Positions 7,041 through 29,425 of a DNA stretch of 64,000 nucleotides are shown one piece after another (the first letter of the stretch is position 1; every line of letters begins with the position of its first letter). The DNA comes from a virus. Its lineage: Duplodnaviria > Caudoviricetes. The notes below the pieces were generated by a model that was given only the letters and a program-made list of their open reading frames with translations, did no database searches and was not told where the DNA came from. Where the stretch lies: the IMG/VR virus record IMGVR_UViG_3300027986_000001, positions 1 through 64,000 of that record; one strand, 5' to 3'. Both the position numbers and the translations under genes were made by a program.

Positions 7041-7051
7041 AGGAGTAACTC

Positions 7052-9215: not shown

Positions 9216-9227
9216 AATATTAGACCG

Positions 9228-9611: not shown

Positions 9612-9615
9612 ATCC

Positions 9616-9915: not shown

Positions 9916-10211
9916 ACGAGCCAACCTACTGCAAGCACTGCGGACGGCGGCTGAAGTTGAAGCCAGCCGAGAGCGATACCCGTCTGGCCCGCCTGTGCCA
10001 GATCCTGAAGGACATGCCGGATCACGAATTCGACAGCTTTATCGAAATAGCGGAGACGATCAGGACCATGCACCCACGCGGGGCGCGTCCCGTCAGGGGA
10101 GAAATAACGGAAATCGAAACCGGCACCAGGATGGCGTGGGACGGGCATTCCTTTGGGTATCATGGTCATGATCCGACGACCCCGCGAAAGATCGACACAG
10201 TTCCGTTCTAG
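9912..10211 (+). CDS. hypothetical protein, LHP-motif paralog
   Basis: FIEIAETIRTMHP. Confidence 0.55.
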   Translation: MNEPTYCKHCGRRLKLKPAESDTRLARLCQILKDMPDHEFDSFIEIAETIRTMHPRGARPVRGEITEIETGTRMAWDGHSFGYHGHDPTTPRKIDTVPF

Positions 10212-10214
10212 GAT

Positions 10215-11003
10215 GTGAATATGAAAACCTTAGCCGTTGTCTGTGGAAGCCCGGAAGAATTCAGCCACTGGAAGCGTGAAGCGTATCCTATCGCTGTGCG
10301 CTTTGGTTGCGATAGGACTTTCCCTGTCTGGTCCATGGAGAGCCTCGGTCGGCTGCGCGGTCTCCAGATCGACGACTTCACCTGCTACGGCACTTGGCAC
10401 CTGTTGCCCGATCGAGAGCGGATTATCGACAGACTGTTGGATATCTGCCCGGTGCGGCAAGGTCACTCCATCAACCCGGCTTTTCCCGCAACGCGCTGTG
10501 CTTTGATAAAAGAAGAGATCAACGAAAAGATCGAGACTAGCTTGGTTACCGGCAACGGATGGTGGACTTCTGCGTTCCCGGAGGCATACCCCGGCAAGGA
10601 CGATCCTGCCTCGGATGCTGGCACGTGGGAGATGAGGCTTCCTACTTATGGGAGCAGTTATGGCGTCTCGCCGCCCGGTTCAGTGATACAGATCGAGCCA
10701 AAGGCCAGCTTCCCACCGAGTCCGCGAGAAGCAGCTATCGAGGAATTGACCGCCATCGCCCGCCGCCTGTCGCAGGAGAATCTCAACGAACTCGTAGAGG
10801 TCGCCAAGACCATTCAGGCGCTGCATCCAATAAAGAAACAGGAGGAGGGCGAGTATCAGTTCAGCTTCAAAACGGCGCACCTCAAATGCGACGGCACGCA
10901 GTGGTGGGTAGGTGACAAACCAGTGGCCGAGTGGGTAGCCGGTCCCGATGACGAAAAATCCGTTCCCGTCTGGAGCCCGCCCAGCATAGAAGAAAACTCT
11001 TGA
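10215..11003 (+). CDS. mosaic hypothetical protein, LHP-motif paralog
   Basis: LVEVAKTIQALHP; contains LKCDGTQWWV shared with 30948..31514. Confidence 0.6.
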   Translation: MNMKTLAVVCGSPEEFSHWKREAYPIAVRFGCDRTFPVWSMESLGRLRGLQIDDFTCYGTWHLLPDRERIIDRLLDICPVRQGHSINPAFPATRCALIKEEINEKIETSLVTGNGWWTSAFPEAYPGKDDPASDAGTWEMRLPTYGSSYGVSPPGSVIQIEPKASFPPSPREAAIEELTAIARRLSQENLNELVEVAKTIQALHPIKKQEEGEYQFSFKTAHLKCDGTQWWVGDKPVAEWVAGPDDEKSVPVWSPPSIEENS

Positions 11004-11034
11004 CTCTTGACTTGTATCTCCGCATACTGAACCC

Positions 11035-11490
11035 ATGAGCAAGAGCGGAATCTTTATGGGGACGACCGAGGCCCCGATTCACCGCAGCATACAGGAGATA
11101 CACGAGCTTTTGGTGCAGGCCGGTGCGACCGAGGTTTCGTCGGTCTACAGCCAAGGCCACATCTCCGGCATGACCTGGGCGATGACCATCGAAGGGAAGT
11201 CGCTGCGGTTCAAGATGCCCGCCAGGGTTGAGGCTTTGAAGCAGCAGTTGCTGAGCCAGTACCGTCGCGGCCCGCGAGGCGATACCGACATCTCAGTCAA
11301 GGCCGAGCGTATCGCTTGGCGGCAACTTTTCCGCTGGGTGCAGGCGCAGGTGGCGTTTGTTGAGACCGGCATGGCACAGCGGCACGAAGTGTTTATGCCA
11401 TACGTGCAGAGCCCCAATGGGCAGACTATGTTCGAGTTGTTTCACGAGACGCAATTCAAGCGTATCGAGGCTCCCGGTAAAAAGTCTTGA
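11035..11490 (+). CDS. conserved phage hypothetical protein (S..EI..LL...GA...AER.AWR....WV.AQ.A...EVFMPY)
   Basis: Family motif; leaderless promoter TTGACT 11000/CATACT 11023. Confidence 0.75.
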   Translation: MSKSGIFMGTTEAPIHRSIQEIHELLVQAGATEVSSVYSQGHISGMTWAMTIEGKSLRFKMPARVEALKQQLLSQYRRGPRGDTDISVKAERIAWRQLFRWVQAQVAFVETGMAQRHEVFMPYVQSPNGQTMFELFHETQFKRIEAPGKKS

Positions 11491-11519
11491 CTTCGCGAAT
11501 TTCTGCCGTTATAGTTCTT

Positions 11520-11690
11520 GCAGTGTTGCATGTGTTCTCTCCAACTGCGGTTCGAAGCGGATTCCCGGTGACCTGGGGAGGTGAACGGTAGTCCGCTTCG
11601 GTTTTACTATTGGCCATCTTAGGGAACAACCACACAGAAACCGGAGACATGATCCGGGTCATGGCGGGCGACGGGTCCCGCCACTTTTCT
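11520..11690 (+). ncRNA. putative structured small RNA
   Basis: Own promoter (TTGACT 11487, 17 bp, TATAGT 11510), stem CGAAGCGGA/TCCGCTTCG, terminal hairpin TGGCGGG/CCCGCCA + T-tract; no good ORF. Confidence 0.5.
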
Positions 11691-11916
11691 GATCTCGCCG
11701 CTCTTGACTTCCTCGTCTTTCCGCCTCATACTTCATCCAACTGAGCCGCATCGCGAATACCCCCTAACACACCGAGGCGGCTACTCCTATCAGGGCGTGG
11801 AGATCACGATCCTCCGCGCCCTGAAAACAAAACTCTTGACTTTTGACTTGGCGGGAATTACTCTTGACGTGTCGGCAACAGCCGAACATCAAAATACACG
11901 AAAAGGAGGTTGTCTT

Positions 11917-12585
11917 ATGGCAACCAGCACCGCAACACCAAAGGCAGTTGTTTCAATTCCGGCCCCGAAGTTTGGGGAGGCCGAGTTCGAGATCATCGGG
12001 ACTGAGGTTTTAGTAATCCACAGGTTCTCCGCCAAAACCAAACAGCAAATGAAATCAAAGATGGAAGAAGGTAAAAGTGCGGGCAGCAAGAAGAACCGCG
12101 AGGCCACATCGACTGATGATTTGTACCAAGCGGCCCGGTACATCAGCCCTGAAGGGTGGGATGGATTTCACGCCGCATCAATCCGCAATGCAATGATAAG
12201 CGCCTGCCGCTTAGTGGGCTACAAGATGACTCTCGCAAAAATGAGCATCTTTGTTTTGGCGGACGGGCACGACGCAATCGAGCCTCAGATTCCACTGGTC
12301 CGCATCTATGGCGAGCCTAAAAAACAAGAGGACATGGCGCGCGTGGAAACCGGCCAGCCGTACGTGACGGTGCGTGCGGCGTACCATGACTGGAGCGCCA
12401 AGGTCCGCATTCGTTGGGACTCTGACCAGTTCAAGTTGGAGGATGTTAGCAATCTGCTTTCAAGAGTAGGATTGCAGGTAGGTCTATGTGAGGGCAGACC
12501 GGACTCCAAAAACTCCTGCGGTATGGGCTGGGGCCTATTCCGTATCAAGGGGAGTGAAGACAATAAATTAGAGGCAGCAGCGTGA
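11917..12585 (+). CDS. solo RAMP superfamily (Cas7/Csm3-like) protein, putative guide-RNA-binding effector
   Basis: AAGGAGG RBS; beta1 motif FEIIGTEVLVIH, GFHAASIRNAM (cf. RAMP iPgsslKGalR), C-terminal Gly-rich loop GLQVGLCEGRP...GMGWGLF; 222 aa. Confidence 0.7.
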   Translation: MATSTATPKAVVSIPAPKFGEAEFEIIGTEVLVIHRFSAKTKQQMKSKMEEGKSAGSKKNREATSTDDLYQAARYISPEGWDGFHAASIRNAMISACRLVGYKMTLAKMSIFVLADGHDAIEPQIPLVRIYGEPKKQEDMARVETGQPYVTVRAAYHDWSAKVRIRWDSDQFKLEDVSNLLSRVGLQVGLCEGRPDSKNSCGMGWGLFRIKGSEDNKLEAAA

Positions 12586-13008
12586 CAAATCCGACTATCA
12601 TCGCAGAATTGAAAAGGGTAGCCGCCGAACATGGCGGCTATCTCCGCCCGAAGGATGTTGTTAAGGCGGCCCGTGAGGAAACCTCGCCATTACACAGCCA
12701 GTTCACCTGGGATAACAATCTCGCCGCTGAAAAGTACCGCCTGCATCAAGCGCGGCAATTAATCTCGGTGGTGGTCGAGTACACGGGGCCTGAAATGAAT
12801 CAGATGAGCCGCGTGTTCGTCTCCTTGACTGAGAATCGGCGTGAGGCGGAAGGGTACATTGAAACCGCCGTCGCAATGTCTGACCCGAGAAGACGCGAAA
12901 GGCTTTTAAAAGGATGCGCTCTTAGAGCTGCGTGCGTTTCAAAAAAAGTATGCTGATCTTGAGCAGTTGGCTAAGGTTTTCGCCGCTTTGGATGACGTGG
13001 CGGCTTGA
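12582..13008 (+). CDS. small partner protein of the RAMP gene (L.P..VV.AA....SPLH..F.WD...AA..YRL.QAR.LI); 1-nt frameshift near 12908-12911
   Basis: GTGA overlap with RAMP stop; removing one A in TTTAAAAGG gives ...LLKDALLELRAFQKKYADLEQLAKVFAALDDVAA* ending 13008. Confidence 0.7.
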
Positions 13009-13632
13009 GTTCGGTTTGGTTCGGCTGGGCAGGTAGGGAGCGGCAAGGTGGGATGAGGCTCGTCCCGATCAAGGCAAGGTTCGGCAGGCGAGGGATGGTG
13101 GGTTATGTTAGGTTGCGGCGCGTAACGGGCTGTCTCGGTCGGTAGTGGGAGGCAAGGTTGGGCAGGAGCGGCCAGGGAGGGTCCGTTAAGCTGTGGAATA
13201 GCGGGGTGAGTTTTGGCAGGTGTGGCAATGAATGATCTGCCGGGGCGAGGAGGGATTTAGAGAGGTCTGGCAGGCGCGGACTTGTGTGGCAGGCATTTGG
13301 TCGGGATGGCAGCGGAATGTCCTGGAAGCGCAGGCTAGGGCTGGAATGGTCCGGGTTGGTATGGATAGGTGTTGCGGGCGATGGCAAGGAAAGGCCGGTA
13401 TGGAGGGGGCTGCAGGGGACAGGTCTGATGGGGGCAGTTGCGGCTAGGACTGGCTGGATTCGGTTTGGCGGGCCTGGACAGGATGGCCTCGGAGCGCCTG
13501 GGTCAGGCCCGGCCTGTATGTGGCGCGGCAGGCAAGGAAAGCTGGAGCTGGGTGCGTTGTTGTTGGCATGGAGTGGGAGGGCAGGCGAGGGATGGACAGG
13601 CGAGCAGTGGAATGGAAATGCAGGAGTGGAAA
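13009..13632 (+). ncRNA. main array of GGN-NN pentamer repeats, units delimited by GGCA(GG); putative guide RNAs
   Basis: 5-nt GG periodicity; GGCAGG at 13028, 13083, 13161, 13215, 13269, 13288, 13527, 13580; several units exactly 54 nt (10 pentamers + GGCA). Confidence 0.8.
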
Positions 13633-13644
13633 AAGGGAGGCGGA

Positions 13645-14460
13645 ATGAGTCCAGAACAAAACGTGAAAAAAGTTGCAATCAACACAATTAGCGTTGATCC
13701 AACGTTGCAAATCAGAGTCGATTTCGACACAGGTGTCGTCAAGGAGTACGCGGCAATCGTTGCGGACAGGGATATGGACCCTGTAACTCTCTTTGACACG
13801 GGAAAGGCGCTGCTACTTGCGGATGGAGCGCACAGAAGGGCGGCTTACATAAAGGCCGGTAAAACGGAAATCCCAGCCGTAACCGTCAAGGGCACGCACT
13901 CAGATGCACTGCGATATTCAATCCAGAAAAATTGCAGGCATGGCATCAAGGTCACGAACCAGGACAAGCGTCGAGCGGCCAGTTTGGCGGTTTTAGACGC
14001 CGATCTTGCCAAGTTGCCAGACGCGGAACTCGGAGAGCTGATCGGCGTGAGCGGCACCCTCGTTGCGGATTGCCGACGTGGAGAAACTCCAGCCGCAAAA
14101 CGCGAAAGAGCCGCAAGCAGAAAATCGAAGAACGGCCAAGGCCCGGCAGTGGTTAGCGTGACAGCGCATGAAAGGAGAAAAGTTGGCGAGACTCGACCGA
14201 CCAAGGCAATGTGCCTAAAGTCAATCGAGTCATGGACAAACGACAGCCTTGTCGATGAGGCGGATATTATTAAGCTGTTCGAGTCGGCCAAGGGCGAGTA
14301 CGTGTTCCTACCCAAAGAAGGCGGCGATTTAAAGGTCACGGTTGTCGGTAAGACGGGCCGGGCGCAGATCGCGGATATAAAAATGATCGTCAAAGACCTA
14401 AATTTTGAGGAGATCAAGCTGAAGTCGGAGAAGTTCGTGATATCAGCGGAGAAGGCATAA
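13645..14460 (+). CDS. ParB/Srx-like N-terminal domain protein with HTH
   Basis: LQIRV...V.EYA...PV.LF....LLADGAHR..A; N..HG...T..DKRRA; HTH DAELGELIGVSGTLV; GGGAGG RBS before ATG 13645. Confidence 0.8.
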   Translation: MSPEQNVKKVAINTISVDPTLQIRVDFDTGVVKEYAAIVADRDMDPVTLFDTGKALLLADGAHRRAAYIKAGKTEIPAVTVKGTHSDALRYSIQKNCRHGIKVTNQDKRRAASLAVLDADLAKLPDAELGELIGVSGTLVADCRRGETPAAKRERAASRKSKNGQGPAVVSVTAHERRKVGETRPTKAMCLKSIESWTNDSLVDEADIIKLFESAKGEYVFLPKEGGDLKVTVVGKTGRAQIADIKMIVKDLNFEEIKLKSEKFVISAEKA

Positions 14461-14476
14461 TGATTCACGGTCTCCT

Positions 14477-14554
14477 GGTGCGGCAGGCAAGGTGGGGCAA
14501 GGTAGGTTTGGGGCAGGATCGGTCCGGCGTGTAAGGGCAGGCGAGGCGCGGCAT
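14477..14554 (+). ncRNA. orphan pentamer array B (one full 10-pentamer unit 14486-14535 between GGCA delimiters)
   Basis: ggca ggcaa ggtgg ggcaa ggtag gtttg gggca ggatc ggtcc ggcgt gtaag ggca. Confidence 0.8.
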
Positions 14555-14602
14555 TCTCTTGACTTTTGCCTCGCTTGCCGTTAGCCTTGGCTTAACAAAA
14601 CT

Positions 14603-14911
14603 ATGGGGTCAACAACCAACCGATGGCAGTCGCCGGTCAGGCCGCGAGAGCTGCGCCGCATGCTGCGGGAGAAAGAGATCAAGATGGCCCCGATCCCGCC
14701 CATGCCCCCAGAGTACACGGACTACCGGCAGAAGCGTCTACGGTTTGCTGTTAGCTGTGCGGTCCTGTTCTTGAAAGGCAAAGACTACGAAGGCATAGCT
14801 CGAAAAGTCGGAATCCGGCGGTCGATCTCTAAACAAAACTTGCAACTCTATATTTCCAAGGGCGCGAAGTTTCTCATAGACAGGGGCTGTTTTATCGGGT
14901 TAAAGACATGA
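14603..14911 (+). CDS. basic protein, probable HTH DNA-binding
   Basis: GKDYEGIARKVG...SKQNLQLYISKG; promoter TTGACT 14559/TAGCCT 14582. Confidence 0.6.
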   Translation: MGSTTNRWQSPVRPRELRRMLREKEIKMAPIPPMPPEYTDYRQKRLRFAVSCAVLFLKGKDYEGIARKVGIRRSISKQNLQLYISKGAKFLIDRGCFIGLKT

Positions 14912-15396
14912 TCTGGAATAGCCTGCAGTCTCCGTGGTTCTGGGTGGCGATGGCGGTCATCGGCGGCATAGCCATCAGATCGGGCATATCCAAGGCCCTG
15001 TCCGCTTGGAGGAACTACCGGGACGACCTGATCTACAAGTTGCGGATGGATATCGAATCTCCCAAGAAGCCGCCGGAGCCGTCCGAGCCCGAGCAGTCTA
15101 ATATTGGACAGCCCGCCAACGGCCACAGCCCAGAGGACGACAAGATCCTACTGGCAATTCTGAACGGCCAGCGCGAGGGCTTACGGTTTCAGGCCGAGCA
15201 AATCAAACTACTGCGGCGACTGAATGGCTTGTTTCGCGGGGAGTCCTACGATGACGTGGATGACTCCCGAGCCACCGAGATTGAGGAGATTAACAACCTG
15301 ATGGAGCGCTATCAGATCCCGCGCCAGGAGGCTGAGGCGAGGGTGCGGGAGAAGCGGACGTACACGGCCAAGGATTTCGGCCTGGGAGAAAGATAG
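14908..15396 (+). CDS. membrane-anchored hypothetical protein
   Basis: N-terminal hydrophobic helix; ATGA overlap. Confidence 0.6.
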   Translation: MIWNSLQSPWFWVAMAVIGGIAIRSGISKALSAWRNYRDDLIYKLRMDIESPKKPPEPSEPEQSNIGQPANGHSPEDDKILLAILNGQREGLRFQAEQIKLLRRLNGLFRGESYDDVDDSRATEIEEINNLMERYQIPRQEAEARVREKRTYTAKDFGLGER

Positions 15397-16367
15397 TGGC
15401 TCTATCGCAGGCAAAACTAACTCGCATCATCGCGCGACGGATCTCTCGTTCCATGGGGGTAGACCAGGATGCGGCAATGGTCGTGGCTAACGAGATCCGG
15501 GAGGACATCAACGAACAGATTTGGATGGATTCTGAAGATGAAGGCAACGGCATCCGACCGATCACGCAAGGCCGGGAGCCAGAGCGCCCCACTGCCCCGC
15601 CGCCGCCAGCTAACATCATGGCCCCGGTCGAGCCGCAGCCCGTCAAGAGCGGCAAGTTGATCCTGACACCGGACGACCCTGAATTCAAGAAGCCCGATGG
15701 CCTGAAAGACACCAAGGTCCGATCGTTTCCCTTGAGGCGCGTTGCGCCAACCACGACGCCGACCAAGGCTCCAGCCCGTAAGTGGTGGTCGTCGGAAACG
15801 CTAATCCAGGCGCTCAGCGAAAATACCCCGGCTGAGATCCAATTCACGCCAGAGGGCAGCAAGAACGTCATCACGGCGGTACGCAACATCTTGAACCAGG
15901 AAGGCATGGACTGTGTGTACCTTGAATACGCCCACGCTGCCGCCAGCCGCGAACTAGGGAACATAGGGAGGGCGAGTGACGGTTCGCCTACTGGCGCTCC
16001 CAATCTTCCCGCCGTAGCCCGCGTGTGCTTCACCCTATACGACAAAGAGCTGCCGCTGCCCGAGTCTATGGAGTCGATCATGACGCAGCTAAGGGGCATG
16101 TATAAGCCAAGGCCGCAGACCCTAATCCCGGCACTGCCTCCCGATAGACCGCTACGAGTGGCTGACGCCGCGCCTGAGAACACTGCCCAAGAAGATACCG
16201 GGTTGATCTCTGGGTGGAACTCGGTAGGCCCGCGAGTGACTCTGGAAAGGCCGATACCGCTAAGTGACGGCAGTGTAGTCACGGAGGTTTCGGACGCTAC
16301 TCAGTTCGTAAAATCCCGAGTCAAGCAAGGCAATATCGACAACTCTCCGAAAATACCCCACCGCTAG
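15396..16367 (+). CDS. Pro-rich hypothetical protein
   Basis: 323 aa coupled ORF. Confidence 0.65.
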   Translation: MALSQAKLTRIIARRISRSMGVDQDAAMVVANEIREDINEQIWMDSEDEGNGIRPITQGREPERPTAPPPPANIMAPVEPQPVKSGKLILTPDDPEFKKPDGLKDTKVRSFPLRRVAPTTTPTKAPARKWWSSETLIQALSENTPAEIQFTPEGSKNVITAVRNILNQEGMDCVYLEYAHAAASRELGNIGRASDGSPTGAPNLPAVARVCFTLYDKELPLPESMESIMTQLRGMYKPRPQTLIPALPPDRPLRVADAAPENTAQEDTGLISGWNSVGPRVTLERPIPLSDGSVVTEVSDATQFVKSRVKQGNIDNSPKIPHR

Positions 16368-16592
16368 TTGTAAAATATTTTACAATTCCCTAGAATTGCG
16401 GCATGGCTATTCCCAAAGAAGACTTACGCGCATTTCTTCAAGACTGCACCGAACAGACCGAGCGCCCGGACTTAGCGGGCAGAGCCGCAGAGCTGCTAGG
16501 CAAGTTGGAGGAAAAAACCGCCAGCAATGAACCTGAACCGCAAGGCCCTCCGGGAGGGCAGGCCCACTAGCCGATTCGCCGGGTAACCATGT

Positions 16593-16967
16593 GTGGCGTT
16601 CGATCCCAAGGATACTGTCCAGCAACTCATGATGGCGCTGATCACGTCGCTGACGGGGCTAACAGGCTATGCCCTACGTAAGGCAGAGCGGGCCGAGCGT
16701 AAAGCAAAGCATTGCCCTCTTAATTTCGAACAGAGAATGGAAAAGCTAGAGGCCGACCTCTCCTCTTTCAGGCGAAATGAGGCCATGGAAGACGCCCGCT
16801 CGGAGCCGCAACTCATTGAGATTATTCGTCAATTGTCCGAGATAGAAGCAAAGGTTAATCGATCTCTCAGGCAGAATGACGAAACACACGGGCGTCTGGC
16901 CCGGTTAGAGAAATTCCGGGCGACGGTGCAGGATAAGTTCCCGGACGATCTTCCGGCTGGAGACTAG
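16593..16967 (+). CDS. TM + coiled-coil protein (holin/lysis accessory-like)
   Basis: Hydrophobic N-terminus then heptad repeats. Confidence 0.45.
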   Translation: MAFDPKDTVQQLMMALITSLTGLTGYALRKAERAERKAKHCPLNFEQRMEKLEADLSSFRRNEAMEDARSEPQLIEIIRQLSEIEAKVNRSLRQNDETHGRLARLEKFRATVQDKFPDDLPAGD

Positions 16968-17625
16968 GCAGCGACCAGTAAAACTTGCGAGTTGGTTTTA
17001 GGAATAGGCCCCACAGCGCGCAGCAGGCCGACTGCGCAATCCAGTATCCGGTATCCGTAGTTTGCCACGGGACAAGCCCACGAAACATGCCGGTACGATT
17101 ATCCAAGCACCCGGCAGCGGCCTGAAAACCCAGGAATAATAGCAGTGTCCAGAAGTGGACCGCCGTGTTGTGTTTCAAGGGCGTCCCTTGCTTCCATAGG
17201 AAATATCCCGCCGCCACGGCCCAGAGGAACATGGCTACCTGAATGTACTCCCTGAGTATCACGAACTGGTGGAACCCGGACCACGGCTCTCCGCTAACGA
17301 ACGCAATAAACACGGAGCAAAAAATGGCTAACAGGGAGAAACTGGACACTCCCACGAGAAGCCAGCGCATGCCCTCGCGCGTCATCCCTAGCGTTACTCG
17401 GTGAAATGCTTCTAGTAGCATGACACCTCGTCCAATCAGCAGGGCGAGTGTTGTCGCCACCCAAAAGCCGTTCCACCAGTCGGGGCTGTCCTTGTAAAAC
17501 GGGGCGACAGTCACCAGGGATGATGCGATCAGATACCCGTAAAATGCCGGGAAGTTTTTCCACCAGCGCAGGCGAGACAAGCGTACAAGCAGTGCTATCT
17601 GGCAGGCGAGAAAGATAATTCTCAT
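16867..17625 (-). CDS. multi-pass (~7 TM) membrane protein, counter-oriented
   Basis: Successive hydrophobic segments. Confidence 0.65.
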   Translation of the reverse strand: MRIIFLACQIALLVRLSRLRWWKNFPAFYGYLIASSLVTVAPFYKDSPDWWNGFWVATTLALLIGRGVMLLEAFHRVTLGMTREGMRWLLVGVSSFSLLAIFCSVFIAFVSGEPWSGFHQFVILREYIQVAMFLWAVAAGYFLWKQGTPLKHNTAVHFWTLLLFLGFQAAAGCLDNRTGMFRGLVPWQTTDTGYWIAQSACCALWGLFLKPTRKFYWSLPSLQPEDRPGTYPAPSPGISLTGPDARVFRHSA

Positions 17626-17692
17626 GTCTGCTATTATCCTCGCACGTCAAGCAGCAGTTGTAGTTCCTTTGTAAGAACCGCTACAATTCATC

Positions 17693-17995
17693 GTGCAGGA
17701 AACGGCTAATTCCATGTGGCAAGGTCTCGTAATAGCCAACTCTGCGGGCCTGTTTACCTTGTTCGGCTGGCTGATCGGCGTTACCTACGCAGCCGGACAA
17801 CGGGCCAAGCAGATGGACGTGAACACGGAAGCGATCAAGGAAATTCGGGAACGCGGATCGCCCGGAGTCCGCGAGCGATTCGATTCCATCAAAGAAAGGC
17901 TGGATGGTATCTCGCGAGAGCAATCCGCCCAGCGTAAAATTCTGGATCGCTTATCGGATCGGTCCTCGGCTCACGGCGTCATCCAGACGGACTAG
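17693..17995 (+). CDS. TM + coiled-coil protein (XhlA/holin-like)
   Basis: One TM followed by coiled coil. Confidence 0.45.
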   Translation: MQETANSMWQGLVIANSAGLFTLFGWLIGVTYAAGQRAKQMDVNTEAIKEIRERGSPGVRERFDSIKERLDGISREQSAQRKILDRLSDRSSAHGVIQTD

Positions 17996-18001
17996 AGAGA
18001 C

Positions 18002-18307
18002 ATGAAGGTAACAATCAAAATGAATATCCCAAGCGACCGAACCGAGCAGCACTTCTTGATGATGGTCGGGCTAATGCTCACCTTCTTCTTCACGCAGATA
18101 TTCATTGAGGGGATCATAGCCCTGAGGTGGGTATCGCCGGACAGTATGAGCCAAAGTTTAGCCATGTCTCACGACGCTTTTCTGACTTTCTTCGGACTAG
18201 CCGCCGGGATCTTTCATGGCATGGTGCCGCAGATTGCGGGCCGCGCCCCGTTCTTGGTTCCGCCGCAGCCCGCGCCGGAGCCCGAGAAACTCGAACCCGC
18301 TGCGTGA
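18002..18307 (+). CDS. 2-TM protein, putative holin
   Basis: Two hydrophobic helices, charged tail. Confidence 0.4.
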   Translation: MKVTIKMNIPSDRTEQHFLMMVGLMLTFFFTQIFIEGIIALRWVSPDSMSQSLAMSHDAFLTFFGLAAGIFHGMVPQIAGRAPFLVPPQPAPEPEKLEPAA

Positions 18308-18319
18308 TACTATCGCTCC

Positions 18320-18811
18320 GTGGCTAAGATTGTCCGTAACATAGGCGCAAGAAAGCGCCGCCGCTCCCTTCCCCCGGTGCCGGAGCCAATTCCGGATCTA
18401 GTGCTACCCGATAACCTCAACAAAACAAATATCACCGCCCGGTCGCTCCAAAAGGGTGCGTACCAGAAAAAGCTACTCCAGTTCTTTGCCCCGTACTTGT
18501 TACCCGATGCTTTTAACGCCCTGCGCCGCCTCATCCAGTCCGACAATATAGAGGCCGCCAAGAAGACGCTGGAAGCCTACGGCGTGCTCTCCGCGCCCAA
18601 GGGGGCTACGACTATCATTGCCCCGCAGTTCAACAACGAGAACAAGGCCGAGGCCATGGCCCAGGCCGCCGCCATAGCGGCCAAGAAGCAGGACGACGCC
18701 AAGGGAATCAGCGATTTCGAGAGTATGATCCGGTTAGTCGAGGAAGGGCAGAAGACGATCTTACTCCAGCCCGCCCAGTACGAGCCCACGCCCGAAGGCG
18801 CAGCCGAGTAG
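18320..18811 (+). CDS. terS: putative terminase small subunit
   Basis: Position directly before TerL; helical, 163 aa. Confidence 0.55.
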   Translation: MAKIVRNIGARKRRRSLPPVPEPIPDLVLPDNLNKTNITARSLQKGAYQKKLLQFFAPYLLPDAFNALRRLIQSDNIEAAKKTLEAYGVLSAPKGATTIIAPQFNNENKAEAMAQAAAIAAKKQDDAKGISDFESMIRLVEEGQKTILLQPAQYEPTPEGAAE

Positions 18812-18814
18812 TAT

Positions 18815-21046
18815 ATGGCGCGTGACGCCGGGATAGACGCCCTAGTCGAGTACTACGACCGCCATATTCCTGACCGCTTCGGATTCAAGCCGGAGGAGTG
18901 GGTACAGCTTCCGCAGGCGCAGCAAATCGCAATGCTAACCCCGCAGGAACGACAGGCGATATTCGAGCAAGTGCAACTCTGCAAGTCCAGCTTTGAATAC
19001 GCTGCGCGCAACTATTTCTGGTTGGTGAACAACGAATCAAAGGACCAACTCTTCAGTCTCTGGGAGAGCCAGTATCTGGTCCTAGAAACGATGCGTCGGA
19101 TTAAAGAACGCGGCAAGGCGCAGAAAATTTTCGTGATCAAGGCCCGCAGACTCGGATGTTCAACTTTGATCGAGGCCCTGATTGCCTGGAGGGCAATTTT
19201 CTTCCGCAACGTGTACGGAATCGTAATTTCAGTTGACGAGGACGATGCGGCCTACCTGTTCGGATTCATGCAGCACTTCTACGACAAACTGCCGTGGTGG
19301 ATGAAGCCGGAGATCTCGTCCCGCGAAATCAAAGGCGGTCTAATATTTGACAGAAAAGACCCAAGTTTACGTGCCGTAAATCCGGGAAATAACTCGGAGG
19401 TCAAAGTTCAGTATTCCACGCAGTTCTCTGGTGTCGGCCAGGGCCGCCGCGTAAGTGCGGCTCACATTAGCGAAATGAGTGACTACGAACAAAAGCGCGC
19501 TGAGGAGATCGTAATGGAGGATCTCACGCCAGCTATCCATCCTACGCCGGAAAACTTTGCCTTCATCGAAACAACCGGCAAGGGAACTGGCAATATGACT
19601 CACCGCCTATGGCGGGCGTCTGAAAAGTTGGCCGAACGGGCGGAATGGTATCCCTTGTTTCTTGCGTCATTCTTCGAGCACAGTCGAACGATATTCGTTC
19701 CTGATGAGTGGAAACCGCAGCGGCCAGAGTTGGCCATTCGCGAGCGAGTCCGAAAGGAATGGGTAAAGTGCAATCACTGTAATCAGTTTCAGCACGCCAT
19801 AGAAGATCGGGTGAAGATGCTGGATGCTACCTGCCCAATGTGCTTAAAGGGGAAAATGCTGGAGGTTATCCTGACCCCTGGTCAGCTTGGGTGGATGGAG
19901 GAGCGCAGGATTCAGGCCGAGGCCAACGGTCGTGAGGCGGTCAAGAAGTACAGGCAGGAATTTTCGATCTCGGCGGAGGAGAGCTTCCAGGTTAGCGGTT
20001 ATTCAGTTTTTGATGACCAGTGCTACGAGAAAGTCACGGAAACGATCGAAGACCCGGAGCATAATGCTTACGTAAAAGTCGGCCTGATTGGCAACCCAGA
20101 CGGTAAGTTCCACGGCTATAATCCCGACACCAAAAAGTGCTACGCCGAGGGCTGCACCGACGATCACCGCATGCTGTCGCCGATGGACGCGCTGTTCACG
20201 ATCTACCGCGATCCAGTTCCAGGCGCTGAATATTCTATCGGCTGCGACGTGTCCGAGGGGATCGGGGAAGACTATAGCGTTATCTTCGTGAACCGAATCG
20301 GGGGGCAGCATGCTCCGGATGAGGAGGTCGCCGTCTGGCGGGACAACTGGACCGACCCAAAGGCCGTATCGTTCTTCTGTAACGCGATTGGCCGCATGTA
20401 CAATGACGCCTTGATGGCTATCGAGTACAACCTCTACAACATTGTCGGCGACGACGTGCTGTACAAATACCAGTACCCCAATATCTACATCTGGAAAAAC
20501 AAAGAAAACCGCCACGGCGTTCTAACCCACAAATACCATTGGTGGACGAAGGCCGGGAGCAAGACGCTGCTCTACCAGACGGCGAGATCATGGCTCCGAT
20601 CCGGCGCGTGGATCATTCATTCCAAATTATTCCGCGACGAGATGACGACCTTTGTCAAAGAAGGTTTTGAGGAGAGAAACGCAAAACACGCCCAAGATCA
20701 GCACGATGATTTGCTTATGGCAGCAATGATCAGTCTCTACTGCCCCCATGAACTCGATACGCAGGAAGGCACGGGCAGAATACCTGTCCCGCAAATCGAG
20801 GACAACAATGCTCCCAAGGACTGGTTAATGCGCTGTGGTGCCTGCGGCGGGGAATGGGAGGCCGAGAGGCCGGACGTGTTTTACTCCTGCCCGCTGCCGG
20901 ATGAGGTAAATGGCGGCGTATGCGGGTCGATTCAGATCACCGGCAAGCGCAAGATTGAGCAGAGAAACGAAGTAAGGATAGACTTCCCGCCGGGGAGTGT
21001 TGAGGAAGCTGGCTCCAACGCTGAATTAAGTTGGAACCAGCTTTGA
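18815..21046 (+). CDS. terL: terminase large subunit
   Basis: Walker A VIKARRLGCST, Walker B AHISE, IETTGKG, nuclease IGCDVSEGIGEDYS, AIEYN, HDDLLMA. Confidence 0.95.
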   Translation: MARDAGIDALVEYYDRHIPDRFGFKPEEWVQLPQAQQIAMLTPQERQAIFEQVQLCKSSFEYAARNYFWLVNNESKDQLFSLWESQYLVLETMRRIKERGKAQKIFVIKARRLGCSTLIEALIAWRAIFFRNVYGIVISVDEDDAAYLFGFMQHFYDKLPWWMKPEISSREIKGGLIFDRKDPSLRAVNPGNNSEVKVQYSTQFSGVGQGRRVSAAHISEMSDYEQKRAEEIVMEDLTPAIHPTPENFAFIETTGKGTGNMTHRLWRASEKLAERAEWYPLFLASFFEHSRTIFVPDEWKPQRPELAIRERVRKEWVKCNHCNQFQHAIEDRVKMLDATCPMCLKGKMLEVILTPGQLGWMEERRIQAEANGREAVKKYRQEFSISAEESFQVSGYSVFDDQCYEKVTETIEDPEHNAYVKVGLIGNPDGKFHGYNPDTKKCYAEGCTDDHRMLSPMDALFTIYRDPVPGAEYSIGCDVSEGIGEDYSVIFVNRIGGQHAPDEEVAVWRDNWTDPKAVSFFCNAIGRMYNDALMAIEYNLYNIVGDDVLYKYQYPNIYIWKNKENRHGVLTHKYHWWTKAGSKTLLYQTARSWLRSGAWIIHSKLFRDEMTTFVKEGFEERNAKHAQDQHDDLLMAAMISLYCPHELDTQEGTGRIPVPQIEDNNAPKDWLMRCGACGGEWEAERPDVFYSCPLPDEVNGGVCGSIQITGKRKIEQRNEVRIDFPPGSVEEAGSNAELSWNQL

Positions 21047-21047
21047 G

Positions 21048-21117
21048 GGCACGAGCCATTTCGCGCCTGACCATTCCGTACTGGTCCTGTCCTACCCGCT
21101 TCGGTCCTCACCACGCC
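21048..21117 (-). ncRNA. orphan pentamer array C (14 pentamers)
   Basis: Minus strand: ggcgt ggtga ggacc gaagc gggta ggaca ggacc agtac ggaat ggtca ggcgc gaaat ggctc gtgcc; TATACT just upstream. Confidence 0.8.
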
Positions 21118-21176
21118 CGAAATCAGTATAGTACAAAACTCTTGACTTTGAGCAAAATGTTTTACATACTTCTCTC

Positions 21177-21743
21177 ATGCCAAAAACACTGATTCACACG
21201 CAAATCGAGTTGGAGTCAGAGCAGATTGAAAAGTTGACCAGTATGGTAGAAGAAGAGGCATCCGTGGCCGAGAAGGTAGGGGGGCTAGCCCAGACTGCTC
21301 TGACTGATCTAGCTAACGGCGGAATGATGTTAGAGCCAATCACGATGCGCGCTCTGGAGCAGTCCATTGGACAAGCCATCGAAGGGCAGGGCCAAATCCT
21401 TAGTTTGGTCGAGGCCGGTGCCGGTCAAGCAGACGGAAGGATGGTGCTAAAGTGGAGCATCGACCCAACGTACATGCCGCAATTGGAGGCAATGGCGACG
21501 TTCCAGGAGTGTTCGGTATTAGAACTTGCGCAGCGGACAATTGACACTTGCGTGGACCAGGGATGGGCTATCGGGGATGTGCAGCCGATGCCGGAGCGCG
21601 TGCTGATGTCCAAGGAAGACAAGTCGGCCATAGAGCAGGTGCTGGGCGGCGCGTTCACTAACGGGACAGAATTGTCCCAGCTACTCAAGGTCGCCCTCGG
21701 CATGACCTCACCCTTCACCGAGGAGCCACTGGCGGCGAAGTAG
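21177..21743 (+). CDS. hypothetical protein
   Basis: Leaderless promoter TTGACT 21142/CATACT 21165. Confidence 0.7.
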   Translation: MPKTLIHTQIELESEQIEKLTSMVEEEASVAEKVGGLAQTALTDLANGGMMLEPITMRALEQSIGQAIEGQGQILSLVEAGAGQADGRMVLKWSIDPTYMPQLEAMATFQECSVLELAQRTIDTCVDQGWAIGDVQPMPERVLMSKEDKSAIEQVLGGAFTNGTELSQLLKVALGMTSPFTEEPLAAK

Positions 21744-21851
21744 TCCAATATTAGACAAGCAGGGCGATGAGCTATCTGGATAAAACGCAAGGGCCGATCG
21801 TAGGCCACCGCGCCTTTTTCGGGAGGCGCGGGCTACGACCAAGACCCCCGG

Positions 21852-22139
21852 ATGTTGGGCGCTGCAAATAATGCTATCGGCTCCGGGATGTCGGGCATGC
21901 AACAGGCTCAAGCGTACCAAGGATTCCGCACCTCAATAGGGCTGTTCGGCTCTTTGTCAGTCAGCAGCACATCAGACCTATCTGCTGTCCAGCATCGTCT
22001 TGATCCAAGGATCGAGAAGCTGGTTAAGATGGCCGAAAACGCCAGCGATACGGCGCTGGAAGGTATCCTGGAAACGGCTGAAGTAATCAATACGCTTCAC
22101 CCCAAGATCGAGAAAGGCGGACTAGATGCAGCTTCCTGA
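21852..22139 (+). CDS. hypothetical protein, LHP-motif paralog (true start may be near 21768 with a T-run frameshift)
   Basis: ILETAEVINTLHP. Confidence 0.5.
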   Translation: MLGAANNAIGSGMSGMQQAQAYQGFRTSIGLFGSLSVSSTSDLSAVQHRLDPRIEKLVKMAENASDTALEGILETAEVINTLHPKIEKGGLDAAS

Positions 22140-22314
22140 TGGCGTAGAGTTGTGGACCATCGAAGGTCCTCAAGGTGACCGCCTGATTTTCACGTCGGGC
22201 GGAAGATACGTCGGATTCATTACGGTAGGCTGTGATCTATCGCCGGAGGCCGTGGTCCTACTTGCGCAGCAGGGCATAGAGCAGGACTGGGACGAGATGC
22301 AGGGGGAGATCTAG
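22126..22314 (+). CDS. small hypothetical protein
   Basis: ORF track. Confidence 0.45.
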   Translation: MQLPDGVELWTIEGPQGDRLIFTSGGRYVGFITVGCDLSPEAVVLLAQQGIEQDWDEMQGEI

Positions 22315-22331
22315 CGGCCCGGTGTTGACGT

Positions 22332-22425
22332 GGCAGGAGTGGCGAGGTCAGGATAGGTTAGGTCCGGTCAGGCGCGGCGCAGGGAGGAGAGATATGGCAT
22401 GTTCCGGTCTGGCAGGGCAGGAAGG
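22332..22425 (+). ncRNA. orphan pentamer array D (15 pentamers after GGCA)
   Basis: ggca ggagt ggcga ggtca ggata ggtta ggtcc ggtca ggcgc ggcgc aggga ggaga gatat ggcat gttcc ggtct ggcag. Confidence 0.82.
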
Positions 22426-22433
22426 GAAAATGC

Positions 22434-22832
22434 GTGCCGGTATTTGAGCATCAGTGTAACTCTTGCGGAAGGGTGGCCGAGCATTATTACGGTCACCCGC
22501 CGGAGGTGAATCCGCCATGTGAGATTTGCGGCGAGCCGACAGAGCGTCTACTTAGCGCATTTAATTCCCCGTTCACCGGAATCATATCCTCCCGCTACAT
22601 CGACCGTTCGATCAAAGGCTCCGAGTCCGCTAGTGATGGGCATTGGGCTTGGGAGCGCAACACTCCAGACAAAAAGCCAAGGGCTCGGTTTATCAGTTCA
22701 TGGCAGGAGCAGCGGGACTTCTGTAAATCTGAAGGCTTAATCAACCCCCGTGAATGCGGCAATAACATCCAGCCGCGCGATGACGGCAAGGGGCTCCAGA
22801 ACTCGGTCGGGATGCCGGGGTGCGAAGTCTAG
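22434..22832 (+). CDS. FmdB-family zinc-ribbon protein
   Basis: MP.FE..C..CG...E........CEICG....RL.S. Confidence 0.8.
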   Translation: MPVFEHQCNSCGRVAEHYYGHPPEVNPPCEICGEPTERLLSAFNSPFTGIISSRYIDRSIKGSESASDGHWAWERNTPDKKPRARFISSWQEQRDFCKSEGLINPRECGNNIQPRDDGKGLQNSVGMPGCEV

Positions 22833-22919
22833 TCGTTGGGCTGTAAAGTCGGACCCTGGCCTAATCTGCAACTTTTCTCTTTACGAGTACCTAGGGGCAT
22901 GTGTTATATCTAACACAGC

Positions 22920-24791
22920 GTGTTCGCCCCAAGGCCATCCTTGGTACGGCCCAAGTCTGGGACTACAGACATAGGTGACTCGTACGCCAAAAAAATGGTG
23001 GACTGGCGCGATTCGCTTATTCAGCAAGCCTCGACTGAATGGCAGGCCGCCAGATCGTTACAGGAAATTGGTCTATTTATAGACTATCTCTCCGGGAAAA
23101 ATTGGTGGGGCGAAAATCGTCCGCAGTGGCGGTCAAGCGTAGTTGACAACTACCTTGCCGACCAGCGCCGCGAAGCCCTGGCCTCCCTAACTTCCACCCG
23201 CCCCGCCTTCGATGTTTCCTCAACCGTGGAAGCCTACAAGGACCAAGGGAAGATCACCAACGACTACATCAAGCACACCTGGGTCGATGACGACCTAGAC
23301 CTGAAGTTGGTCGAATGGATCGACCATGCTTTATTCGGAACGGGGTTTTGGAAGATCACCTGCTACGAGCCGGGCATCTTTGAGATAACCGCCCACGGGC
23401 TGGATGAGGTCATTCCAGTGATGATGCGCAACGATCTCCAGACCGCCGCCGCCGTAATCTACCGCACCTATCAAAATTTGGACTACTTTATCGGCAAGTT
23501 TGGGCGCGATGCCTGCGAGGGACTGCAGCGCTATGCGGTGCAGCTTAGCACCTCACAGAAGCCGACCAAGTACGCCCGGCCTGACAGTATTCCTGAGTAC
23601 GTCTGGAATCCAATGTCGCCAGCCATGAAGGCGCGGATGAGCAGGCGCAACGGACCGCCGCCGCCGAACTACTCGCCCGTTTCGCCGTTCATCTCCCTCG
23701 AACTGATGGAGATATACTCCGACGACTGGCACTACAACGACACCGACCACGCTTGGCTGATTAAGCACCCGGATCTCGATGTTGACGAGCACAACTATCA
23801 CTACATCGTGCCGCCCAAGGCGCGGCTGTTCCCGCGTAAGCGCCTTACCGTATTCGCCGGAGACAAGGTGATGTACGACGGGCCAGCACCGTTCTGGCAC
23901 GGGCTCTACCCGTTCGTCATGTTGCAACTGAACCCGTGTGTTTGGTCGCCCGGAGGAATCTCCAAATACCGCGATATCCTGCCACTTAACATGCTAGTCA
24001 ACCGGATCGTGGCCGGATTCGATGAGAACATCATGCAGGCACTGAACCAGACCACAATCTCCAAACGCGGCGCGATCGATCCGGTGTCTTGGGAGCGGTT
24101 CATCCCCGGCAAGCCGAATCAGAAATTGCTCATGAACCCCACGGGAGATCCGGTGCGCGACCTCCGTCGTCTCGACCCTCCGATAATCCCGGCGTACGTT
24201 GCTGAGTCGCTACGATACGCGATCGACACAATCAAGAAGCGGTCCGGATCGCTGGATATATCCGGCCTTGCCCGCAAAAAACAGGTGCCGGGCGGAGACG
24301 CTATCGAGAACATGCGAGACGCGATGTCGAGCCCCTTTCAACTCGAAGGGCGCTACGTCGAGGCCGCACTAAAGCGCGCGGGCATACAGGCGGTCAGCCA
24401 CGTTTTTCAGTTCACCACGCTGGAGCGCCGCTTACAGGTTCTTGGGCCGGACGGGCAGACCGAACAGGACTATCAGCCGCCATACGGGAGCATGAGCATG
24501 ATGAGCAGTCCCAAGGAAGATCACTGGAAAAAGTTCCCATTCAAGATCGCTCCGGGGTCGATGCACAGCGCATCCAAGTTCCAGAGAAAATCGGAAGCAA
24601 TCGTATTGAGACGGCAAGGAGATCTCAGTATGCAGGGCCTGTATGAGTTGGCTGAGGTCCCTCTGTCTTATGAGATAGAAAAAACGCGACTAATGCAGGA
24701 ACACAAAGAGGGCATCGGACCGCAGCCGAAAAAGGCAGCGGCGGGTGCTCCACGTACCTCGCGCTCCCAGCGCACGGGGTCACCAATCTGA
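22920..24791 (+). CDS. portal protein
   Basis: 623 aa after TerL; ALFGTGFWK, YDGP.PFWHG.YPF motifs of podovirus-type portals. Confidence 0.85.
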   Translation: MFAPRPSLVRPKSGTTDIGDSYAKKMVDWRDSLIQQASTEWQAARSLQEIGLFIDYLSGKNWWGENRPQWRSSVVDNYLADQRREALASLTSTRPAFDVSSTVEAYKDQGKITNDYIKHTWVDDDLDLKLVEWIDHALFGTGFWKITCYEPGIFEITAHGLDEVIPVMMRNDLQTAAAVIYRTYQNLDYFIGKFGRDACEGLQRYAVQLSTSQKPTKYARPDSIPEYVWNPMSPAMKARMSRRNGPPPPNYSPVSPFISLELMEIYSDDWHYNDTDHAWLIKHPDLDVDEHNYHYIVPPKARLFPRKRLTVFAGDKVMYDGPAPFWHGLYPFVMLQLNPCVWSPGGISKYRDILPLNMLVNRIVAGFDENIMQALNQTTISKRGAIDPVSWERFIPGKPNQKLLMNPTGDPVRDLRRLDPPIIPAYVAESLRYAIDTIKKRSGSLDISGLARKKQVPGGDAIENMRDAMSSPFQLEGRYVEAALKRAGIQAVSHVFQFTTLERRLQVLGPDGQTEQDYQPPYGSMSMMSSPKEDHWKKFPFKIAPGSMHSASKFQRKSEAIVLRRQGDLSMQGLYELAEVPLSYEIEKTRLMQEHKEGIGPQPKKAAAGAPRTSRSQRTGSPI

Positions 24792-24793
24792 TT

Positions 24794-25201
24794 ATGAGCG
24801 CCAGCGCCGAGCCGTTATTCGATAACGATCCGCCGCAAGAGATTGACTACAGCCATCCCGCTTGGCGCGACCCTGCCGCCTTCATCCCACTCGAAGCTCT
24901 GATCGAATACAATCTCGGAGACGTTCCGCAGATAGAAATCCTCGAATGCCAGTTAAGGAACGCTCTGTGCGTGTACGCCATTAAGCACCCGGATGCAATA
25001 AATTCCATCCTTCATCCCCAGCCGCCGCCGAACAAACGGCGCGGCCCCGCCAAGTCAAAGCACAGTCCAATCCTCCGCCTACAGCACCGCATGGGAGCGC
25101 TCACTACGAACCTTAATCTGACGCCGGAACAGCGCAGGATGAACGCCCGCCGCGCAGCCCTGACACGCTGGGGAAGCCCGCAGGGTATCGGCCCCCGCTA
25201 A
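24794..25201 (+). CDS. hypothetical protein with C-terminal LTPEQR...AR.AA..RW motif
   Basis: ORF track. Confidence 0.55.
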   Translation: MSASAEPLFDNDPPQEIDYSHPAWRDPAAFIPLEALIEYNLGDVPQIEILECQLRNALCVYAIKHPDAINSILHPQPPPNKRRGPAKSKHSPILRLQHRMGALTTNLNLTPEQRRMNARRAALTRWGSPQGIGPR

Positions 25202-28201: not shown

Positions 28202-29425
28202 ACGGCCTTACAACTCACTGAGTTGGACGCCTATGTACATGACCACATCGAGCCGCGTTAAGTGATAGCGCCATGAGCATGAGAGTGCTCATGCAAACCC
28301 CGTTAATTGCTGGGAAGCCTCACCGAGGCAATCAGCAGCGAAGCCCAGAAATGGGAACGTTCAACGACTATCCCGAAAGGGAGTAGGGCCAAGTGGTCCG
28401 AAATGCGGGGGGTCCAGAAATGGATCGTGATATAGTCTGGCCTGCATGGCGACATGCAGAAGGATCGGCCTAACGAGCTGATTCGAAACAACTTAGCGAC
28501 CACTGACGTAGTGTACGCCACATCTCCTGTGTTCACTCGGCTGTCCCAGCAGAACGCCGAAAAGTTCTCGGGCAACAGTCAGATCCGGCGTCCCATCATC
28601 GTTGGGATGCTGAACGGCGGCGTCATTGGACGCGGCGGATCGGTGCCGGTGGACTTCGTGGTCACGGACGCGGCCTTGACCGCTCTGATGAAGGTCTACT
28701 GGGTCGGCATTACGTTGTATGGCTTCGATGCCATGAACAACGACGGCCCGGAGGCGATCTTCAATCAGGTCGAGATGAAGTTCCTGAACGCCTCGCTGAA
28801 GATGGCCCAACTGCTGGCGACCGATATGTACCTCAACGGCCAGAGTTCGACGGGGCGCACATTGAACCTCAACGGCCTGCAGGAGTGGTACGACGACGGG
28901 ACCAATTTCCCGACTGTTGGCGGTCAGAACCGGACGGACATCAACGGTCAAGCCACGGGCACGCCCGGCGGGCTGAATGCCTTCACGGCCAACGTTACCA
29001 GTTTTACGCTGCAGACGCTCAATACGGCCTACGGCAACGCCTGCTGGGGTCCGGATCACCCGGATCTGATCGCGGTCACACAGAACGGCTGGAACCTGAT
29101 CTGGAACGGCCTGCAGCCAAGCCAGCGCTACGCCAACGTCGAGAACGACCTGGGCAACATCGGTTTCACGAATTTCCGTTTCAACGCGGGCGATGTAGTG
29201 ATCGACCGATACATGCCTACCGGGACGAGCGGACTGATGCTCGGGATGAACACTTCGTATGTCGAGTGGTACTTCTCAAACGTCCCGCTTTTCCAGTTTG
29301 GGTTCACGGGCTTCAAGGGCTCGGACAACACCATCGGCGATGTTACGGGACAGTACGTGGCAGGTACGAATCTCCTCGTACCAAACCCCAGAACGGGATT
29401 CAAGATAACGAGCTCACTATTTTAA
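28202..29425 (+). CDS. major capsid protein, join(28202..28258, 28499..29425), ~327 aa
   Basis: Spliced N-terminus (M)ALQLTELDAYVHDHIEPR|TTDVVYATSPVFTRL; capsid-like body (GG..G.G, D...N.G...IF, L...MY..G, NGL); AAGGAGG RBS before an ACG codon. Confidence 0.85.
28259..28498 (+). ncRNA. group I intron (240 nt, no ORF) in the major capsid gene
   Basis: P AATTGCTGGGAA, Q AATCAGCAG, R GTTCAACGACTA, S GATATAGTCT; exon 1 ends in U, intron ends in G; splicing restores frame. Confidence 0.9.

Follow-up and report, generated by a model that had tools for sequence, protein, structure and literature searches.

Array D and the Neighboring FmdB-Like Gene

The virus record from which the window analyzed here (the whole 64,000-nt stretch) derives is complete, is 99,896 bp long, and has terminal repeats; the window covers its first 64 kb. 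Within the window, the 119-nt gap between an ORF at 22126–22314 and a GTG at 22434 is filled by a tract with a 5-nt period, from which an automatic parser, designed independently of the original prediction, returned one block of 15 pentamers, designated array D (Table 1). The pentamers read GGAGT, GGCGA, GGTCA, GGATA, GGTTA, GGTCC, GGTCA, GGCGC, GGCGC, AGGGA, GGAGA, GATAT, GGCAT, GTTCC, and GGTCT. The GG is kept in 12 of the 15 units, with units 10, 12, and 14 being degenerate (AGGGA, GATAT, and GTTCC, respectively), and C or T predominates as the third base (Y3 in 11/15 units), with A found at three scaffold positions. The dinucleotides at pentamer positions 4 and 5 (NN), 10 of which are distinct among the 15 units, are exactly those listed in the original prediction.

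Both edges of array D are formed by a GGCAGG sequence (22332–37 and 22411–16). No conserved 3′ tail was seen after D or after the other distal arrays B and C, as read from the sequence alone, and the GGCAGG junctions resemble the tail-less "staggered" architecture, in which adjoining vrRNAs share 1 nt (VIPR preprint). Around D, no 25–40-nt direct repeat of the kind expected for a CRISPR array was seen by eye, with the only periodicity being that of 5 nt. Furthermore, no Rfam family matched at the arrays, and no tRNAs were found.

The ORF that follows array D begins MPVFEHQCNSCG and encodes an FmdB-like protein. Zn_ribbon_8 (PF09723) matches residues 1–39 with E = 6e-5 and 23.4 bits, below the cut-off of 34.4, and the match spans the domain at full length (1–40/41); both the CNSC and CEIC knuckles are present. 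A single distant FmdB-like homologue (39% identity) has a precomputed PF09723 match, and its orthologous codons score only 12/30 against array D, which is uninformative.

Table 1. Positions of array D, its flanking features, the VIPR genes, and the other arrays (window coordinates, except for the last row, which refers to another phage)
Feature	Position	Strand	Basis or remark
vipr, 222 aa, predicted small RAMP protein with Gly-rich C-terminal loop	11917..12585	+	AF2 model, Foldseek
Candidate vap, 124 aa	12582..12956	+	Position; phrog_15946, function unknown
Main vrRNA array region, 650 nt	12990..13640	+	Run-on, register shifts at GGCAGG, rather degenerate
Distal guide B, 10 units	14486..14535	+	Self codons 14612–14641, 16/20; L138 ortholog, 19/20
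Distal guide C, 13 units	21053..21117	-	Self codons from 21459, 17/26; L138 ortholog, 21/26
Promoter box CTCTTGACTTT, nearest upstream of D on the + strand	21139..21149	+	10 copies in the window vs 0.9 expected
TGGCAGG junction, 5′ edge of array D	22331..22337	+	Sequence; the array starts with its final GG
Array D, putative distal vrRNA guide	22336..22410	+	15 GGY/NN pentamers; objective automatic parser
3′ junction: two GGCAG units, then A-rich stretch with Shine-Dalgarno-like AAGGGA before the GTG at 22434	22411..22433	+	Sequence
FmdB-like zinc-ribbon gene, 132 aa, self ortholog of the guide D target	22434..22832	+	Pfam Zn_ribbon_8, sub-threshold
Self segment, codons 15–29 (AEHYYGHPPEVNPPC)	22476..22520	+	19/30 NN vs guide D (63%)
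Cyanophage Cy-LDV1 GGYNN arrays (L125)	4653–4839 and 5455–5578		Directly after Vipr homologue

The VIPR Locus and Other Arrays of the Phage

VIPR, first described in 2026, has three components: the small RAMP protein Vipr, an accessory gene named vap, and vrRNAs composed of 9–16 GGY/NN repeats (bioRxiv 10.64898/2026.04.26.720920). Array D, with 15 units of GGY plus a hypervariable NN, conforms to this vrRNA pattern. The NN dinucleotides pair with double-stranded DNA with a "1-nt skip," the skipped base usually being the codon wobble position, and natural targets, which show an NN match of ≥80% and are found in competing phages, satellites, and prophages, undergo transcriptional silencing (bioRxiv 10.64898/2026.04.26.720920). 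The code is supported by in vitro binding, GFP repression assays, and cryo-EM (bioRxiv 10.64898/2026.04.26.720920, 10.64898/2026.04.26.720927), with the companion cryo-EM preprint reporting one protomer per repeat and an R-loop that grows from the guide 3′ end (bioRxiv 10.64898/2026.04.26.720927).

An AF2 model of the putative Vipr built from the single sequence was useless (pLDDT 36), and an alignment-based model from 44 homologues (pLDDT 79.5, pTM 0.76) was used instead. Among the Foldseek PDB matches listed for this model (probability 0.92–1.0, TM 0.31–0.47), nearly all are subunits of type III Csm/Cmr complexes, with a few other CRISPR effector backbones. As modeled, the product is a Vipr protein with a Csm3/Cas7-like fold, encoded in the same element as array D. 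The family includes 3121 homologues, and the Gly-rich C-terminal motif is invariant across the 44 used for modeling. A homologue from cyanophage Cy-LDV1 shows 48% identity and those from Gordonia phages about 30%, and in these phages GGYNN arrays lie directly 3′ of the vipr homologue. The arrays of Cy-LDV1 and Gordonia phage Pipp open with TGGCAGG and change register at GGCAGG; moreover, those of Cy-LDV1 end like D, continuing into the ribosome-binding site of the gene that follows. The Pipp array (L126 3569–3838) is annotated as gene 43, a protein-coding call that is probably a misannotation.

The vipr gene and the candidate vap are translationally coupled, and the main array then follows; assignment of the second gene as accessory gene vap is inferred by analogy with the published two-gene locus plan. 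The main array is far less regular than those of other VIPR loci, with frequent register shifts and many units lacking GG; only one block of ≥9 units was parsed from it, and its blocks gave no significant match to the related contig L138 described below. Across the 99.9-kb genome, GG arrays with a period of 5 nt are confined to four loci, namely the main array, B, C, and D.

The two other distal arrays each have features of their own. For guide B, the self match amounts to 80%, which is borderline in being equal to the published cut-off, with the six units at the 3′ end matching perfectly; its self target comprises codons 4–13, just behind a promoter box at 14556. Guide B could have two roles, self-regulation and action against the L138 allele. 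For array C, the control register (positions 3–4) gives a score of 18/26 at 21497–21535 (mid-p 0.001), antisense and wobble-aligned in the gene at 21177–21743 and ~40 nt from the N4N5 match. Because of this strong control-register match and the GGA scaffolds in 5/13 units, the true register of array C is uncertain.

Copies of the CTCTTGACTTT box with ≤1 mismatch are located at 10997, 11004, 11701, 11833, 14556, 21139, and 32027 on the + strand and at 28153, 52676, and 63912 on the - strand. They include copies before vipr (11833) and just after arrays B and C, and the box is probably the −35 region of the phage's own promoters. A sigma-70-like site is present at 21142–21170, and scans found no closer CTCTTGACTTT box or + strand sigma-70 site between 21170 and D. 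Elsewhere in the window, an Rfam group I intron (RF00028) was found at 28249–28459 (76 bits, E = 1e-17).

Match between Array D and the Phage's Own FmdB-Like Gene

A recount agreed with the original prediction in finding 19/30 NN identities in codon phase between array D and the self segment, including four perfect dinucleotides in a row. The skipped base is codon position 3, in frame, for the self segment and the corresponding L138 segment alike. This score, the best for D against its own genome, is below the published 80% targeting cut-off, and hence D has no self target at ≥80%; 8 of the 11 mismatches fall in the eight units at the 3′ end (8/16 there). A score of ≥19 is reached at only 3 of ~200,000 genome positions on both strands, the claimed site being among the three.

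In shuffles of the NN order, with the best match taken over both strands, the D match was found to have p = 0.022 for a range of ±500 nt and p = 0.047 for one of ±1000 nt, and the mid-p within ±400 nt was 0.013. The hand estimate of ~1e-3 in the original prediction was too optimistic with respect to these values (0.013–0.047). The signal near D is restricted to N4N5 with a 1-nt skip, with skips of 0, 2, and 3 nt and a shifted register all being non-significant. When scored by a +1/-1 local alignment, the self matches of C and D were not outstanding. Thus, the self match of D taken alone is suggestive, a marginal sequence match and not proof. The self match of guide B is stronger (p ~0.001), and Fisher combination of the p values for B, C, and D gives ~7e-5.

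Comparison with a Related Phage

A related locus was traced through an 83%-identical homologue of the protein encoded downstream of array B. This locus, L138, is a 24-kb ENA metagenome contig (contig_91158), of which 20.3 kb were compared; it is syntenic with 6286–25135 of the window, with nucleotide identity of 66–79% (blastn), and is the one relative locus on which the comparison is based. Guides B, C, and D were each scanned along the whole 20.3 kb on both strands, and the top match of each was found at the codons orthologous to its self match. For D, this match scores 24/30 at 16801–16845 (VEHYYYHADADMMPC), with the next best scoring 19; the scores for B and C also exceed those of the self matches (Table 1). 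The L138 scores of the three guides were reached by 0/3000 shuffled guides.

Because the orthologous codons of L138 give 24/30, a score reached by none of the 3000 shuffles, the D match is taken as settled, and the central claim of the original prediction—that the NN series is a variant of the neighboring zinc-ribbon gene—is borne out by the better fit to the L138 allele than to the self allele. At L138, D matches gaplessly with the 1-nt skip and an NN identity of 80%, exactly at the cut-off for natural targets. Where the self and L138 segments differ, D agrees with L138 at seven NN sites, with self at two, and with neither at two; pooled over B, C, and D, the differing sites divide 18:6 in favor of L138. 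Six mismatches remain between D and L138, and unit 15 (CT) conflicts with a Cys codon conserved in both alleles. As read from the aligned sequences, array D spells an allele of the adjacent FmdB-like gene that is closer to the L138 allele than to the phage's own. Since the L138 allele reaches 80% and not 100%, the exact natural target allele of D lies outside the sampled sequences.

In the L138 ortholog of the FmdB-like gene (16745–17150), the first knuckle no longer has its second Cys, and the gene appears to be frameshifted near 16975, reflecting either decay or an assembly error. With this frameshifted appearance and without the first CxxC, the ortholog may not be an essential target in L138.

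The counterpart of the VIPR locus in L138 is different in organization. The region of the window from 11867 to 13633, containing vipr, vap, and the main array, is replaced in L138 by 116 nt (blastn), and vipr, vap, and arrays B, C, and D were all not found in the recovered 20.3 kb. The 116-nt stretch contains one 13-unit vrRNA (8818–8882), which has a CTCTTGACTTT-type promoter box to itself and is followed by an inverted repeat. In the genome of the present phage, this guide matches best within a conserved part of vipr (12346–12384; ETGQPYVTVRAAY), where it scores 20/26 in frame, with the next best match being 19/26; given this small margin, the apparent aim at vipr is a lead rather than a result. 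Judged from the blastn alignment within the 20.3 kb, the guide at 8818–8882 appears to be a solo vrRNA as defined in the literature. L138 also encodes an IS605 OrfB/TnpB-like gene (5853–6971; Cas12f1-like TNB domain), for which blastn showed no aligned counterpart in the present phage.

Searches for Other Targets and Other Viral Contigs

Scans of IMG/VR, JGI metagenomes, and GTDB genomes yielded no allele that matches array D better than that of L138. With exact seeds, IMG/VR yielded a single chance match for units 1–8 (20/30) and another for units 7–15 (22/30), and JGI metagenomes yielded nine matches for units 1–9, of which the best (24/30) is in a stop-containing frame and at chance level. 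A relaxed pattern made from the positions common to D and L138 gave nothing in IMG/VR or GTDB genomes, and a search for variants in one DNA run returned the source contig alone. Likewise, no external match in IMG/VR was found for guide B or for an orphan guide on another viral contig (L028). With respect to relatives identified by the portal protein, none was found in IMG/VR, and INPHARED gave only Tunturiibacter phages at 23% identity.

Arrays of this type are common in viral sequences. A scan of IMG/VR for nine in-phase GGH units returned >118 contigs of wide GC range, many of them with blocks of 10–15 units and variable NN. For all 256 guide blocks of 84 loci, there was no general excess of best matches near the array. 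Clustered guide blocks in other IMG/VR phages behaved as the null predicts, with 5.5% at p < 0.05, whereas isolated blocks were enriched for sub-threshold matches within 400 nt, with 5/32 at p < 0.05 and 4/32 at p < 0.01 (~0.3 expected). This excess among the sequences suggests that guides lying beside a similar gene are not limited to the present phage. Examples of isolated blocks are L100 1244–1323, L043 2605–2659, L006 4760–4844, and L028 5071–5130, on viral contigs unrelated to one another, each with sub-threshold NNx matches of 62–73% within ~130–200 nt; most of these matches are in an open frame, and that of L028 begins with the start codon of the following gene. As a matter of annotation, GGYNN arrays, common as they are in viral contigs, are sometimes annotated as genes.

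Proposed Function of Array D and Alternative Explanations

Array D is likely a vrRNA of the phage's own VIPR that spells a non-self allele of the FmdB-like gene and is aimed at co-infecting relatives; close relatives are proposed because D matches the L138 allele better than it matches the phage's own copy. The RNA would probably arise by processing of the operon transcript made from the promoter at 21139, a source proposed because no nearer + strand promoter was found in the scans. By analogy with the published systems, Vipr protomers would polymerize along D, one per pentamer, holding GGY and exposing NN, and the resulting filament would pair with double-stranded DNA by reading NNx NNx, with the wobble base skipped, and would block transcription. 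In relatives, D would thereby bring Vipr to the FmdB-like gene, which immediately precedes the portal and structural genes, and polarity would be expected to silence the genes behind it. The phage's own copy would escape through its 11 mismatches, mainly in the 3′ units where the R-loop reportedly begins, and placement of the guide beside the immune self allele would keep both together through recombination.

That D is instead a decayed or ancestral guide that no longer works, its likeness to both alleles having come down from an old version of the neighboring gene, appears unlikely. Such a relic would fit with the three degenerate units, the A in place of Y at three scaffold positions, the similarly rather degenerate main array, and the fact that no exact target was found in the collections scanned. 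Retention of GG in 12/15 units and the two intact GGCAGG junctions argue otherwise, as does the common occurrence of internal degeneracy in working vrRNAs (bioRxiv 10.64898/2026.04.26.720920); furthermore, three separate distal guides keep ≥80% identity to the same L138, which would not be expected under decay. Distinctly improbable is the proposal that D partially and tunably represses the phage's own FmdB-like gene, 66 nt downstream, together with the portal operon. The self match is indeed above chance (p 0.013–0.047) and lies early in the directly downstream gene on the same strand, promoter-proximal targets were repressed well in published VIPR assays (bioRxiv 10.64898/2026.04.26.720920), and guide B matches its own neighbor at 80% with a perfect 3′ six units. 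For D, however, the self match reaches only 63% against the 80% cut-off and is weakest (8/16) in the 3′ units, the informative sites favor the L138 allele 7:2, and published VIPR surveys found zero self matches at ≥80% (bioRxiv 10.64898/2026.04.26.720920).

It is highly improbable that D has some unrelated, unsampled target and resembles its neighbor by coincidence. The marginal self match, which loses rank under the +1/-1 local score, and the post hoc nature of the search behind the original prediction would permit this, but in an independent genome D scores 24/30 at the orthologous codons, with 0/3000 shuffles reaching this score and a next best of 19, which is difficult to reconcile with chance, as are the repetition of the pattern by B and C and the Fisher value of ~7e-5. 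A chimeric assembly of L138 with sequence from the present phage is argued against by the identity of 66–79%. Finally, a wholly different kind of element—a TRAP-like ring-protein array, CsrA sponge, G-quadruplex tract, or ParB-like centromere—would account for GG recurring every 5 nt in blocks of 10–15 units on a G-rich strand, and the main array adjoins a ParB-like gene. Such an element is scarcely credible here, as it would not explain why NN matches orthologous genes of two genomes in codon phase or why such arrays are linked to a Cas7-like protein in phages that are unrelated, and no Rfam family was matched. A Rho-utilization site, a TRAP-like array, a CsrA sponge, a G-quadruplex, and a ParB centromere had been considered as candidates and were dropped in view of the VIPR preprints and the codon-phased matches.

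Taking array D as a guide against relatives, a broader scheme can be put forward only tentatively: the distal vrRNAs might be tightly linked "guide plus immune allele" cassettes, each guide having been inserted next to its diverged self ortholog and directed at the allele of close relatives. Such cassettes would behave as poison–antidote modules inseparable by recombination and could drive allele replacement within a phage population, with VIPR-null relatives answering by means of an anti-vipr solo guide. If general, this would amount to RNA-guided kin discrimination and superinfection exclusion among near-identical phages, of which the cis-match excess in isolated IMG/VR guides would be a hint. 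The natural VIPR targets described so far come from enterobacterial and Pseudomonas systems and comprise satellites, prophages, vipr genes, and vrRNAs. The present case would extend VIPR to an uncultured 100-kb soil-metagenome phage with three distal guides, each adjoining a gene whose non-self allele it appears to encode. The genome pair bears on self versus near-self discrimination (63% versus 80–95% NN match), on the mismatch tolerance of Vipr, and on selection for placing a guide beside a diverged self allele.

Comparison with Known Systems

The code, the protein family, and orphan guides have already been published, and the original prediction in effect re-derived the VIPR code from sequence alone. 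The rule of which it counted array D as the third independent case is the published VIPR code, and B and C behave like D. Neither distal guides of a VIPR-positive phage, each within ~70–350 nt of the self ortholog of its target, nor ordinary genes, syntenic in close relatives, as targets were found in the VIPR preprints.

Array D has in common with the vrRNAs of Escherichia phage SUSP1 and a Pseudomonas fulva prophage (type II VIPR) its tandem GGY/NN pentamers, NN specificity, and 1-nt skip falling on the wobble base, as well as a small Cas7-like RAMP protein (as modeled here) in the same genome and a target in a competing mobile element. Unlike in those systems, D is ~9.75 kb from vipr, inside the structural-gene operon, and its proposed target is the ortholog of the adjoining gene. 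In addition, the vrRNAs of the SUSP1 clade carry a conserved 3′ pseudoknot tail, whereas none is visible in D, the edges of which are GGCAGG, as in "staggered" arrays. The present Vipr shows no detectable sequence similarity to that of SUSP1, with a tblastn search of phage records (E ≤ 1) having returned no SUSP1 record.

In VIPR-null phages, solo vrRNAs replace vipr-vap1 and target the vipr of relatives, with self scores being lower than non-self scores (bioRxiv 10.64898/2026.10.15.759431). The solo or orphan vrRNAs of VIPR-null SUSP1-like phages and F5 satellites resemble D in being stand-alone guides that spare self through lower scores (10.64898/2026.10.15.759431). L138 fits this class directly, its vipr-vap being replaced by a single guide with the best match in vipr, and the putative vipr-targeting guide resembles the arms race described in that study (bioRxiv 10.64898/2026.10.15.759431). 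D itself is not a solo vrRNA by definition, as it resides in a VIPR-positive genome with the end of vipr (12585) within 20 kb. The published target classes of solo vrRNAs are vipr, vrRNA loci, satellites, and host REP elements, and do not include an ortholog of the gene beside the guide.

With respect to the crRNA–Cas7 backbones of type III and type I CRISPR systems, the common feature is the periodic binding of a guide by RAMP protomers that flip bases, and the Vipr model is, among the PDB matches listed, nearest to Csm3/Cmr4. The period is 5 nt in VIPR, with three bases sequestered, as opposed to 6 nt in CRISPR, with one base flipped; VIPR also has no repeat–spacer array and no Cas1/Cas2, and its reading of the target is gapped. 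Toxin–antitoxin and restriction–modification cassettes are comparable by analogy only, in that a harmful guide and a mismatched self allele would lie within ~70 nt of one another. In contrast to toxin–antitoxin systems, the "antidote" here would be the sequence divergence of an ordinary gene and not a separate product.
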